From the IMG/VR virus record IMGVR_UViG_2585427971_000010: a stretch of 51,466 nt of DNA. One strand, given 5' to 3'. Each line of letters begins with the position of its first letter. Positions within the stretch are counted from its first letter, which is position 1. The position numbers and the translations under genes are program-made. The stretch comes from a virus. Lineage: Duplodnaviria > Heunggongvirae > Uroviricota > Caudoviricetes. This document shows positions 1 through 17,232 of this stretch, piece by piece. The notes under the pieces are model-generated. The model was not told where the DNA came from. It searched no databases and was given only the letters and a program-made list of their open reading frames with translations.

Positions 1-132
1 TCAGCCGTTGTCACGCTCATGCAGACGTCCCCGGATATTTGCCACAAAGAGAATACGGGCCAGCCGTTCCTGCAGATCGTCCGTGTTCATCTGAGGGTAG
101 AGCTCCGCAGTTCGCCCAGCAGCTCAGTCGGG

Positions 133-1107
133 TTAACCCGTTTTCGACCCGCTAAACAGAGGTGCCAGGACGGGTTCCAGCGTGCCATTTAACACACCTC
201 CGTTCATCAGAATGTCCAGCGCGTCGTCAAGCTGCTGCTGAGCCTGAATATCGGCATCAATCGCCTCGGCAAATGACAGCGGCAGCATGTTATTCTGGCG
301 TTCCGACGGTGATGTCTCGTCAATATCGCCGTCCTGCAGTTGGTACTCACGCTTAAAGTATTGCGGGGTCAGACGCAGACCCGCCCGGGTGAGTTTTTCG
401 TCGCGGGTGGCGCGGGTGTCATCAATGGTCTCCTGTTCCCACATGGCCCAGACCGGACACGGCACATCGCCGAAGTTCAGGGTGACCACCGTTCTGATAA
501 CCTGATTCACTGCTGCCTGAATGATGTCCGCATCCGCATCGCGGATATCAGCCGTTACCTCCAGCCCGGCCTGTGCAGAGGCCTTGTTACTGTTCGCTTC
601 CGTGGTCTGATTCTGACCAAGTAATGCAATGGAGATCTCACTGCGTGACAGTGTGATCAGCTCGCGGAATACCTCGCTGCTGTCCGCCTTACCATCCGCG
701 GCTTTGAGTTCGATGCTGCTGTCATCGGGGATGGCGGCCACCGCGTCCTCCACCATCTGCTCCATGGAGTCCAGCAGTTTTTCAATCTCTGCATCATTTG
801 CACCCCTCGGGTGCTTACCGATCACCCACGGGGAGCCAAACTTTTCGGCAAAGCGGAGCCAGAATTTCATCCCGCCTTTCTTGAAGGCGACCGGCCAGAA
901 GCACATGGACAGGTCCGGGAAACCGTAAGGATTGTCATACGAGGCATCCTGTGCCGGCACCACGAATTTTGACGGTGACAGCAGCTCACCCTCCACACCC
1001 GCATCACGCGCCCGGAAGCGCAGGCAGTTGTCCGTATCAAACTGAAACCACTCAGGCGGTTTGCCGACAATATCCGTCACTGCCCACGCCCTGACCGAAC
1101 GGCCCAC
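133..1107 (-). CDS. portal protein, C-terminal segment (Mu gp29-like); gene split by a frameshift
   Basis: 324-aa ORF with Mu-like portal conserved region (…VTDIVGKPPEWFQFD…); apparent GTG start; overlaps the N-terminal fragment in another frame. Confidence 0.6.
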   Translation of the reverse strand: MGRSVRAWAVTDIVGKPPEWFQFDTDNCLRFRARDAGVEGELLSPSKFVVPAQDASYDNPYGFPDLSMCFWPVAFKKGGMKFWLRFAEKFGSPWVIGKHPRGANDAEIEKLLDSMEQMVEDAVAAIPDDSSIELKAADGKADSSEVFRELITLSRSEISIALLGQNQTTEANSNKASAQAGLEVTADIRDADADIIQAAVNQVIRTVVTLNFGDVPCPVWAMWEQETIDDTRATRDEKLTRAGLRLTPQYFKREYQLQDGDIDETSPSERQNNMLPLSFAEAIDADIQAQQQLDDALDILMNGGVLNGTLEPVLAPLFSGSKTG

Positions 1108-1493
1108 ATGATTTCACAGGGCTGATACCCGTAGAGCACGGCATCACTCATCTCACCGATGATGCGGGACAGATCCAGATCGTCGAGCATGTCGCGGATG
1201 AAACGGAAGACCCGGGCAGAAGCGTGACCGCGCTCCAGTCCACGCTCCAGTGATTTGAGCGCTGCTTTACGTCTGCGGATACAGCCCCCAACCAGCGGGT
1301 CGGTGCGCAGTTCGCGGTAGATACGGATATCCCGTCCCTGAGCCTTGAGAATGGGATCAGGATTGGGCAGATACATGCCCAGTCCGTAAAAGTCGATCGC
1401 GCGGCTGCGGGAGGCAATCTGCGCGGTCAGTGATTTCTGAGGCTCAGAAAAAGCAACAAATTCATCGGGTGAAACCCAGATACCCCTCGCCAT
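1077..1493 (-). CDS. portal protein, N-terminal segment (Mu gp29-like); frameshifted relative to 133..1107
   Basis: 138-aa ORF ending …YGYQPCEIMWAVRSGRGQ*; start overlaps the terminase stop (ATGA); continuation is in the -1 frame. Confidence 0.55.
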   Translation of the reverse strand: MARGIWVSPDEFVAFSEPQKSLTAQIASRSRAIDFYGLGMYLPNPDPILKAQGRDIRIYRELRTDPLVGGCIRRRKAALKSLERGLERGHASARVFRFIRDMLDDLDLSRIIGEMSDAVLYGYQPCEIMWAVRSGRGQ

Positions 1494-3088
1494 CAGAATC
1501 CCTCCAGCATACGGGCCGCCTGACGACGACGGCGTGAGCTTGCCTTCACCGGCCCTTTGTTAATTTCACGGCTGGCGAAATACGCCAGCGCCAGTGCGAT
1601 GGCTGAATCCCCGTGGCGTTTACCACCGTCAGCCTTTGCTTTTGAGCGTTGCTCCGGTACGCGGGGGACACCGTTCACCACCTGAACGGCCCGCAGGTCA
1701 TCCAGTGTGTCTTCATCCTTTGGTAAGTCCACCAGGTTACCGTCTTCCAGTGCAGCTTTGACCGGAGGCATATGCTCCCGGTACCAGCCTTCGGTTGGCA
1801 TCACCTGCTGAACCCGGCCGGAGCCGTAGCGCTGCATGGCGTATTCAGCCAGATAGGCACCATTACCACGGGCATCAAACGCTGCACCCAGCAGACCGGG
1901 CAGGCCATCCATCAGATACCAGGTGATTTGCTCCTGCTGTCTGAACGGCACGTTACGCAGCTCCAGTACGAATGGCACGCGTCGTACCAGGTTCTTCTCC
2001 TGCAGCAGGGGATAGTCCACCGACAAATCACCGCTACGGCCAAAGTCGCGCCCCAGGAAAGAGCGGGCATCAGTGGGGAGTGCCTCCAGCAAGGGTTTCA
2101 GATACTCATCAAGCCAGTCCTGCGTCTCGCGGAAGCGAACCTCATCAGACAGCAGTTCATAACCTTCCTTGCAGGTCAGACGCAATACCGGCGTATCAGC
2201 GGACATGCGGGACTCTATCAGGGCACGGGACAGCCAGGCACCGCCACCGTTGGCCGGAATACAGTCAAGCTCTTCGGATGCGCCGGCACCGTAGAATTTG
2301 TACACCGATGCCATCCAGGCCTGCTCGGATGCCTCCGACCATTCCTTCCCGGTGCGCAGACAGACGCGCCGGAACAGCCCCTCAGATACGGCTTCCCGGA
2401 AAGTGATGCGATGTATGCTGCCTCCCTGACGTCCGGCACGGATATCCCCGATAAGCGTATTGAACGGATTGTCGTCACCGTCATGGGTGGAGATAACGCG
2501 TACCTTTCCCCCCCAGATAAGCATCGCCAGCGCCGCTTTCAGCAGTTCGTCCAGTTGCTCATGGAACGCCGCTTCGTCGATAACAATAATACCCTGACGG
2601 CCACGCAGGTTAGACGGGCGGCTGGAGAGCGCAACAATACGAAAGCCGGAGTCAGGAAATTTGATGGTGTAAGTCCTGATGTGTTTGTCGTCGTCGTCCT
2701 CTTCCCAGAATCCTTCTTCAATTTCACTGGCCGCATAGTTGAATGCCCGTGCCCACATCGCACACGCCTGAATGTATTCGACGGTCATGTCCTGGTTATA
2801 AGCGATGTAATACACATTCATCCCGCCTGCTGGCGCAGAAGAGGCGGCGGTCAGTACGTTATCGGATGCCTCAGCCCATGTAATACCGGTACGACGGCTC
2901 TTTTCTATCACCTTAAGCGGAGAGGTGTCTGCCACCCAGCGCTGCTGGTAAGGCAACAGAACGGGAGGAGCATCCAGCGCCGAGGTATCAGGCAAAACGG
3001 GAGCAAGGTTATTCCTCCCGTCCATGGGACTCATCCCTTCGGGGCCACCGCCAGCGGCGTTTAAAATCACTCCGGATGATTTTGTCAT
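1493..3088 (-). CDS. terminase large subunit (Mu gp28-like)
   Basis: 612-aa ORF; conserved region starts near LLPYQQRW; acidic ATPase and nuclease-like motifs. Start set at internal Met 82; Met at about 3025 (has GAAGGG SD) or 3034 also possible. Confidence 0.75.
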   Translation of the reverse strand: MTKSSGVILNAAGGGPEGMSPMDGRNNLAPVLPDTSALDAPPVLLPYQQRWVADTSPLKVIEKSRRTGITWAEASDNVLTAASSAPAGGMNVYYIAYNQDMTVEYIQACAMWARAFNYAASEIEEGFWEEDDDDKHIRTYTIKFPDSGFRIVALSSRPSNLRGRQGIIVIDEAAFHEQLDELLKAALAMLIWGGKVRVISTHDGDDNPFNTLIGDIRAGRQGGSIHRITFREAVSEGLFRRVCLRTGKEWSEASEQAWMASVYKFYGAGASEELDCIPANGGGAWLSRALIESRMSADTPVLRLTCKEGYELLSDEVRFRETQDWLDEYLKPLLEALPTDARSFLGRDFGRSGDLSVDYPLLQEKNLVRRVPFVLELRNVPFRQQEQITWYLMDGLPGLLGAAFDARGNGAYLAEYAMQRYGSGRVQQVMPTEGWYREHMPPVKAALEDGNLVDLPKDEDTLDDLRAVQVVNGVPRVPEQRSKAKADGGKRHGDSAIALALAYFASREINKGPVKASSRRRRQAARMLEGF

Positions 3089-16256: not shown

Positions 16257-16257
16257 T

Positions 16258-16707
16258 ATGCAGAAAAAACGCCTGATACAGCTTATCCATATTGCCCGTA
16301 ATGAACTGGGTATGGATGAAGACACCTACCGCCAGATGTTACAGGGGCTGACCGGTAAAGCCTCAACCAAAGGAATGGATACCACACAACTAAACTGCGT
16401 GCTGGAATCCATGAAAAAGAAAGGCTTTCGCGTTAAACCAGCCAGAAAAGCCAGCTCCGGTTTACCGCTGGATAACCATCCGCAGTCCAGGAAAATTCGT
16501 GCGCTATGGCTTGAAATGGCTGCTGCCGGCATTGTTCGTGACCGTTCAGAAAATGCATTAGCGAGGTGGATCAAGCGGGAAACGGGCATCAGCGCCCTGC
16601 GCTGGCTCAGTACTGAACAGGCAAGCAGTGTTATTGAGAAACTGAAGAAGTGGCAGCGCAGAGCTGCGGGAGTCAAACATGAGCGACCTGAATCAGTTTC
16701 GAAGTAA
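16258..16707 (+). CDS. gemA: GemA-like regulatory protein (Mu gp16 family)
   Basis: N-terminal LIQLIHIARNELGMDEDTYRQML… pattern typical of GemA; sits immediately upstream of the Mor-family gene. Confidence 0.6.
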   Translation: MQKKRLIQLIHIARNELGMDEDTYRQMLQGLTGKASTKGMDTTQLNCVLESMKKKGFRVKPARKASSGLPLDNHPQSRKIRALWLEMAAAGIVRDRSENALARWIKRETGISALRWLSTEQASSVIEKLKKWQRRAAGVKHERPESVSK

Positions 16708-17068
16708 GGGGCCGGAACTCCTGGTGGAACTGGCACAGCATACCTCTGAGACCGTTCGCGAGATTATTGATATTGAGCCCGAAGTTGCCGACCAGATTGG
16801 TCAGGCCGTCGCGAACCGAATGATGCAGGTCTGGGGCGGGCAAAACGTTTATTTCCCGATGGGCATGGTATGGAAGGTCAGTCAGCGCGACCGGGAAATC
16901 TTCAGGGAGTTTAACGGACGCAACCACCACGAACTGGCCCGCAAATTTGGTGTTTCGCTTCAGTGGGTCTACAGCGTGGTTAAGCGGGTAAGAAAAGAAG
17001 AACTGGATCGGATGCAGGGCAAGCTATTTGCTGATGAACCCGATGCAGATACGGAGAAAAAAGAGTAA
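16679..17068 (+). CDS. mor: Mor/C-family transcriptional activator
   Basis: 129 aa with conserved Mor-family segments (…WGGQNVYFPMG…, …FREFNGRNHHELARKFGVSLQWVYSVVKRVR…). Confidence 0.7.
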   Translation: MSDLNQFRSKGPELLVELAQHTSETVREIIDIEPEVADQIGQAVANRMMQVWGGQNVYFPMGMVWKVSQRDREIFREFNGRNHHELARKFGVSLQWVYSVVKRVRKEELDRMQGKLFADEPDADTEKKE

Positions 17069-17232
17069 TATCTGCAATCAGGCTGGCGCGAGTTCTGTTT
17101 TTTTTCGGGCCGGTCTGATTTTCACATACTGTAAGGTTATTGCATATTCCTCCTAGTCTCTTCCCATTTTGACCCAGTTCTTCCCATAAATATCTCACTT
17201 ATTCCCTGTCATTTATCTCAAGTCTAATCAAA

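Follow-up and report, generated by a model that had tools for sequence, protein, structure and literature searches.

The DNA analyzed here, hereafter the window, is the 51,466-nucleotide IMG/VR virus record IMGVR_UViG_2585427971_000010, which derives from contig JMJC01000012.1 of GCA_000714955.1; a window position equals the record position minus 17. Positions 1 to 17230 hold part of a transposable prophage (hereafter the element), and the remainder belongs to a second, resident prophage. In the element, leftward genes for the portal, terminase, and lysis proteins are followed by a short accessory cassette, a CI-type repressor gene, and a rightward early operon that leads from a small helix-turn-helix (HTH) gene through transposase and ATPase genes to gemA and mor (Table 1). 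Modules were assigned with Pfam, PHROGs, and NCBIfam, and every module was supported. An earlier annotation made from the letters alone (the sequence-only reading) had described late genes running leftward on the minus strand from 5990, a minus-strand repressor, a rightward early module, and, downstream of it, genes for a lambdoid replication initiator and for DnaB helicase, and our open reading frame (ORF) map and family searches agree with it on these points.

The late module is incomplete in the window because the window start, 17 bp from the contig start, cuts the element. JMJC01000012.1 itself opens 17 bp ahead of the window, within the element, and the left 20 kb of the element is absent from the contig. 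As a full reference copy we used the prophage of Escherichia coli Z0117EC0055 (L004), to part of which window 1-17230 is 99.94% identical. Across the window and this reference the repressor, the transposase, Mor, the lysis cassette, and the head/tail set are each present once.

Table 1. Features of the element and of its junction with the resident prophage (window positions; aa, amino acid; TM, transmembrane)
Feature	Position	Strand	Evidence or remark
Portal, Mu gp29/DUF935 type	1..1493	-	PF06074 on both ORFs; 58-68% aa identity to BcepMu gp29; cut by window start
Large terminase, Mu gp28 type	1493..3034	-	63% aa identity to BcepMu gp28, 49% to Mu gp28; weak Terminase_6N match
Small terminase-like protein, Mu gp27/DUF3486	3085..3629	-	PF11985, E = 1.8e-49; 67.5% aa identity to BcepMu gp27
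Two small conserved late genes (hypothetical protein and membrane protein)	3629..4266	-	phrog_436, phrog_462; 57% and 52% aa identity to BcepMu gp26 and gp25
Rz-like spanin	4263..4913	-	phrog_1403; lysis cassette, collinear with BcepMu gp21-23
SLT-domain endolysin	4897..5637	-	PF01464; lysis cassette, collinear with BcepMu gp21-23
Holin	5640..5990	-	PF13272; lysis cassette, collinear with BcepMu gp21-23
Intergenic region upstream of holin, putative Mor-dependent late promoter	5991..6120	-	Block kept with KP12: TAACGCGCTTTAAAATCC...ATTTGTGATGCTGTCT
Small P-loop protein	6121..6597	+	Accessory cassette
2-TM protein	6635..7216	-	Accessory cassette; TM segment prediction
Single-pass membrane protein, Flk-N-like domain	7307..8293	-	NF007987 Flk, E = 2.9e-12, below cutoff
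CI/XRE-type HTH repressor, orthologue of BcepMu gp17	8290..8751	-	HTH_31, HTH_3; 38.5% aa identity to gp17
Early promoter-like site, TTGACA-17-CATAAT	8726..8754	+	11/12 consensus matches
Small HTH protein in Ner/Cro position	8802..8990	+	phrog_925; homologous to BcepMu gp16
Winged-HTH regulator	9043..9351	+	phrog_1368; homologous to BcepMu gp12
DUF3102 protein	9362..10276	+	phrog_1748; homologous to BcepMu gp10
DDE (rve) transposase, BcepMu gp09 type	10280..12049	+	PF00665 sole Pfam match; 68% aa identity to gp09 over 98% of length
Transposition ATPase, ExeA/AAA_22 type, directly downstream of transposase	12060..13226	+	PF13401; phrog_296 "DNA transposition protein"; 59% aa identity to BcepMu gp08
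gam, host-nuclease inhibitor, pseudogene	13526..14056	+	PF07352 covers profile positions 1-81 of 149
Small semi-essential early genes, including nucleoside triphosphate pyrophosphohydrolase-like and DUF2786/DUF7168 proteins	14154..16256	+	Same genes annotated in L004
GemA	16258..16707	+	PF06252, E = 8e-41; homologous to BcepMu gp02
Mor/C-family late activator, single	16679..17068	+	PF08765, E = 1e-43; homologous to BcepMu gp01; last early-operon gene
Right terminal region of element	17069..17230	.	Ends ...TCTAATCA-3'; terminal CA at 17230
Predicted right copy of target duplication AAATGG	17231..17236	.	By 6-bp duplications at three other sites; left copy outside contig
O-like replication initiator, 5'-truncated	17231..17925	+	phrog_345, E = 2.4e-58; 100% identical to SK1144
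DnaB-type helicase	~17915..19330	+	DnaB domains

A tblastn search with every window gene found homologues in BcepMu (NC_005882; genus Bcepmuvirus) for 17 of the 29, at 32 to 68% amino acid identity and in perfect mirror collinearity from portal to Mor. The BcepMu portal lies at 15.8 to 17.1 kb, the holin at 11.6 kb, the repressor at 9.3 to 9.6 kb, the transposase at 4.7 to 6.5 kb, and Mor at 0.37 to 0.72 kb, at the genome end. BcepMu has been described as two clusters on opposite strands with lysogeny control at their interface and, after it, a lysis cassette and the genes for morphogenesis (Lavigne et al. 2009, PMC2771037), and the same description was given for phiE255 (Ronning et al. 2010, PMC2920897). 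Like these two phages, the element has divergent clusters with a CI-type repressor and a small HTH gene where they meet. It also shares with BcepMu the early order (HTH, DUF3102, rve transposase, ExeA-like ATPase, GemA, and Mor at the end), the late order (holin, SLT lysin, Rz, small terminase, large terminase [TerL], portal, head, and P2-like tail), and TG...CA termini with GATAWWT repeats 14 and 37 nucleotides (nt) from the tips. The P2-like contractile tail module lies beyond the window, in L004, with homologues of the sheath, the tube, gpD, gpV, gpW, gpJ, and gpI.

The element nevertheless differs from BcepMu in several respects. There is no DNA similarity at the megablast level, the host is enterobacterial whereas BcepMu is a Burkholderia phage, and a different set of genes separates the lysis cassette from the repressor. 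The E. coli element has a Mu-type gam, for which BcepMu has no detectable homologue, and at its far end it carries a Gin-like invertase together with a probably invertible tail-fiber segment, whereas BcepMu was described as lacking one (PMC2771037). At the full copies' left end (L004 4730-6982), the Gin-like serine recombinase gene lies beside oppositely oriented partial tail-fiber genes, whose arrangement varies between strains, pointing to an invertible segment.

Closer relatives were found among phage records in a 20-kb megablast search, which matched Escherichia phage PhiKM (PQ738613), Escherichia phage Phi06_2974 B, and Klebsiella phage KP12 clone 2 (OM835952). All three share the gene order of the element, with 86 to 97% nucleotide identity over the shared parts, and end on the right with the same sequence, ...TCTAATCA. 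The matches extend as far as window 17230-17231 or end slightly short of it (17037 in KP12). In PhiKM and KP12 the tail, head, terminase, and lysis genes share a strand; opposite to them lie the regulators, the transposase, GemA, and, at the end, Mor. The PhiKM record additionally has host-like DNA adjoining the Mor end, which is only suggestive of heterogeneous host DNA at virion ends.

The resemblance to Mu (NC_000929) is of a more general kind. Both are transposable myoviruses with TG...CA ends and the same lifestyle logic, and tblastn detected TerL, portal, Gam, GemA, and Mor, and only these, among the window genes. The transposase had no tblastn match in Mu, and a Pfam search of the window proteins returned no Mu-specific transposase or repressor domain. 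The labels A, B, and c given to the early genes in the sequence-only reading were thus misplaced, as these proteins correspond to BcepMu gp09, gp08, and gp17 and are not homologous to MuA, MuB, and Mu c. The BcepMu transposase itself is of the Tn552/IS1604 type, unrelated to MuA, and the BcepMu genome has terminal CA dinucleotides (PMC2771037). Apart from c, the Mu genes all share a strand, the map reading c, ner, A, B, mor, C, lys, head, tail, and two activators, Mor and then C, are used; the element, in contrast, is divergent and has one activator. Mu makes 5-bp target duplications and the element 6-bp ones.

Judged by its sequence, the element is thus BcepMu-like (Bcepmuvirus in the broad sense) in its transposase, ATPase, layout, termini, insertion sites, and tail, and not a member of Muvirus. 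The Bcepmuvirus genus threshold is about 70% genome-wide nucleotide identity. With no BcepMu match in the 20-kb megablast and amino acid identities of 32 to 68%, the element probably falls outside the genus in this strict nucleotide sense, although GenBank files PhiKM under Bcepmuvirus.

The ends of the element are well defined by comparison with its full copies. Each is exactly 37,566 bp long and has the ends TGATGCGCC...TCTAATCA, that is, 5'-TG...CA-3'; at both tips GATAWWT repeats lie 14 and 37 nt in, arranged as at the BcepMu tips. The full copies begin with TGATG, and the right end in the window, set by the breakpoint relative to SK1144 and by the full copies, reads ...ATCA at 17230. Here GATAAATG (17210-17217) and GATATTTA (17187-17194) lie on the complementary strand 14 and 37 nt from the tip and are likely transposase-binding repeats. 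In the sequence-only reading the early module ended at 17068, but 17069-17230 still belongs to the element and is its terminal repeat region. Full copies at other sites are flanked by 6-bp target duplications: CTCAGG around the copy in irp2 (Z0117EC0055), GGAGGC around the copies that split an lfhA remnant (strains C7 and AVS0662), and GCTGGT around a copy adjacent to yehK (strain B20123). Mu-type ends and duplications had been proposed as a check on the element, and the TG...CA ends with their repeats are indeed present, in the full copies and at the right end in the window, whereas the duplication is 6 bp rather than 5.

We screened 5,426 complete E. coli genomes for the element and its junctions. 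About 620 to 640 of them carry it, with the irp2 junction found in 27 carriers and the lfhA junction in 6, while most carriers have other junctions. Because these two junctions make up so few of its carriers, the element occupies many sites, as is expected of a transposable phage. In the 27 genomes, irp2, which encodes the yersiniabactin synthetase HMWP2, is interrupted by the 37,566-bp prophage (L004 1-4650 and 42217-42861), and the insertion presumably abolishes yersiniabactin synthesis in that lineage.

On the other side of the junction, window 17231-51466 is collinear with the prophage between leuZ and yecA in strain SK1144 (NZ_AP018784.2 2040541-2082159), with 99.97% identity over 34 kb. 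From 17231 onward the sequence is 100% identical over 2.3 kb to the uninterrupted prophage that SK1144 shares with hundreds of other E. coli genomes; the match to SK1144 breaks at 17230/17231, exactly on the terminal CA of the element. The leuZ-yecA prophage of strains of the sequence type 131 (ST131) type has an intact initiator gene in SK1144 and hundreds of genomes and an interrupted one in the genome of the window. The proposal that a Mu-like element had transposed into a lambdoid prophage is supported by this join and by the uninterrupted prophage in SK1144. The SK1144 initiator has 251 residues; the join falls 61 bp into its gene, and the first ~20 codons are thereby removed. These N-terminal 20 residues seem genuine because the phrog_1347 and phrog_9773 profiles align from residues 1 to 3 of the long form. 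Some gene callers take an internal ATG at 17233 as the start, even in uninterrupted prophages; we therefore rejected the resulting 230-residue ORF as a marker of the insertion, and whichever start is used, the element cuts the gene off from its upstream region. The predicted left junction reads ...TTTTATCCGTCTTGAAATGG followed directly by TGATGCGCCGCGCGATAAATGCAC, and the prophage gene side reads ...CCGTCTTGAAATGG.

The window copy of the element departs from the reference at a few positions. Five 1-nt deletions (108, 137, 153, 1103, and 3143) all fall in homopolymers and all lie within 3.2 kb of the contig start; the first four split the portal into two ORFs, and the fifth alters the 3' end of the small terminase gene. 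We considered true pseudogenization of these two genes and judged sequencing error to be likelier, given the homopolymer context near the contig start, and the deletions probably represent long-read errors. The gam gene, by comparison with L004, has a G-to-A change at 13840 that turns TGG into an internal TGA (13838-13840). This stop is real, since an identical allele (over 101 bp) occurs in five complete E. coli genomes, where RefSeq annotates an internal stop. In strain EC5654 a variant of the element adjoins nagE, and its gam is likewise annotated as a pseudogene with an internal stop.

Taking the gene content, the collinearity, and the ends together, we conclude with high confidence that window 1-17230 belongs to a single BcepMu-type transposable myovirus prophage of intact format, making up the right-hand 17.2 kb of its 37.6 kb, and that the divergent two-cluster layout of this prophage is native to its family. 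Several observations weigh against this interpretation. The left end and left junction of the window copy lie outside the contig, so its AAATGG duplication and its completeness are predictions. The junction of the window copy occurred in none of the 5,426 complete RefSeq E. coli genomes searched, and the predicted left-junction pattern TATCCGTCTTGAA-N2-6-TGATGCGCCGCGCGATAAATG had no match in species-representative genomes. With its gam nonsense codon and the apparent portal and small terminase frameshifts, the window copy may not be a viable phage. Finally, the late promoter and the Mor binding site are known only as a conserved candidate block.

Among the alternatives, the one that retains some plausibility accepts the internal gene order as native and takes the join at 17230/17231 to be an assembly artifact or a minority transposition event in the culture. 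The contig does start inside the element, and the clustering of homopolymer indels in its first 3.2 kb suggests low-coverage long-read sequence. If the strain has more than one copy, a contig would be expected to break off within the 37.6-kb element, as this one does after 17 kb, which also fits this alternative, as does the fact that no other complete genome shares the junction. The breakpoint, however, coincides with the terminal CA, no repeat common to both sides could have misled an assembler, and a 1.13-Mb contig runs without a gap from 17.2 kb of element into 34 kb of prophage. A join this exact between element end and target marks transposition and not chimeric assembly, and we regard this alternative as very unlikely.

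The sequence-only reading instead favored rearrangement: an element of Mu-like order that had inserted and then undergone inversion of its early segment, from ~6000 to ~17130. The argument for this inversion is solely the Mu-based expectation that lys is closely preceded, on its own strand, by Mor and C, and that expectation, which holds for Mu, fails for the BcepMu family. The order seen in the window is native to BcepMu, to PhiKM and KP12, and to full copies at three independent sites with intact 6-bp duplications; that reading had itself named native occurrence in related intact phages as evidence against its proposal. An inversion would moreover have placed the terminal repeats and the CA end internally, whereas 17230 is a true end abutting target DNA, and there are no inverted repeats bracketing ~6000 and ~17130 other than short pairs at chance level. 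We consider the probability of such an inversion negligible. Equally slight is the chance that two truncated Mu-like elements lie head to head, since despite the superficial similarity of divergent transcription from a central point, each function is present once, no element ends occur at 5991-6120, and the full copies move as single 37,566-bp units with one TG...CA pair and one target duplication. A misassembly at 5991-6120, which had also been raised, is contradicted by the presence of the same sequence in other genomes.

For a BcepMu-type element of this layout, the regulatory region suggests how its two clusters could be coordinated. The early promoter-like site at 8726-8754, a strong match to the sigma-70 type, faces the early operon and overlaps the start codon of the repressor gene, and a perfect palindrome, GAGAAC-AATA-GTTCTC (8734-8749), lies between its hexamers, forming a plausible operator/promoter switch. 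We hypothesize that the repressor, which would be transcribed leftward together with the membrane-protein accessory gene, binds this palindrome inside the early promoter. Upon derepression, the rightward early operon would produce the rve-family transposase and the ExeA-like ATPase, which would act on the GATAWWT repeats beside the TG...CA termini and replicate the element by transposition, with 6-bp target duplications. Activators of the Mor/C family work in trans on activator-dependent promoters in Mu. Because Mor is diffusible and would act in trans, it need not adjoin the late genes, and it could switch on the leftward lysis, head, and tail genes from one or more late promoters upstream of the holin, 11 kb away. 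The block TAACGCGCTTTAAAATCC...ATTTGTGATGCTGTCT upstream of the holin is conserved in an alignment with the more divergent KP12, while the flanking sequence is not, making it a candidate late promoter and activator site. A sigma-70 scan of the holin-upstream region (5991-6120) found no consensus promoter; the scan does not cover activator-dependent promoters and is hence uninformative.

The cassette between holin and repressor (6121-8293) has a GC content of 42 to 48%, compared with 55 to 59% in its flanks, and its gene at 7307-8293 has 4 bp in common with the repressor gene. In PhiKM and KP12 this position is taken by other genes, including a Dam-type methylase, and in BcepMu a membrane protein directly follows the repressor. 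The cassette is a variable accessory locus and not the scar of a rearrangement. Its genes had no significant match to defense systems in PADLOC, Pfam, or NCBIfam, and their PHROGs matches were all of unknown function; the repressor-linked membrane-protein cassette could possibly be an uncharacterized superinfection-exclusion or defense module.

The resident prophage, as annotated in SK1144, carries an HTH pair resembling the lambda switch, an O-like initiator, DnaB, Q, holins, and genes for gpW, portal, S49, decoration, and capsid proteins, and its tail is P2-like and contractile. Being lambda-like in its regulation, replication, Q, lysis, and head genes but P2-like in its tail, it is a hybrid of lambda and P2 and not a lambdoid siphovirus of the classical kind. 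The window ends exactly with its last gene, which is gpD/VgrG-like. Two 78-bp direct repeats (22042-22119 and 25464-25541), ~90% identical, bracket a 3.4-kb segment of 32 to 41% GC that holds an LprI-family gene and a hypothetical gene and may be a moron inserted between the repeats.

We propose that the element transposed into the 5' end of the initiator gene of this hybrid at leuZ-yecA, an event that would have severed the initiator and dnaB from their promoter at the cost of ~20 N-terminal codons. The truncated initiator gene and dnaB now come right after the early operon, which reads outward toward them. A scan between mor and the right tip of the element (17069-17230) found no terminator-like site, and because of this, early transcription could read out into the truncated initiator and dnaB after induction. 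It is conceivable, though we think it unlikely, that the landing site is not neutral and either disables the replication of a competing prophage or couples its replication genes to BcepMu-type induction, or else that the accessory cassette serves exclusion or defense.

The element is of a kind already known and has the configuration normal for it; in E. coli it is very common, being found in more than a tenth of the complete genomes. The position of Mor at the opposite end from the lysis genes is the standard BcepMu-type layout and gives no evidence of rearrangement or misassembly. The only feature specific to this instance is the insertion in the initiator gene of another prophage; it shortens the replication initiator of a widespread prophage of ST131 type, which it probably cripples in the strain of the window. 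It opens no new question, and it serves as an example of transposable phages inactivating other mobile elements, as well as genes such as irp2.

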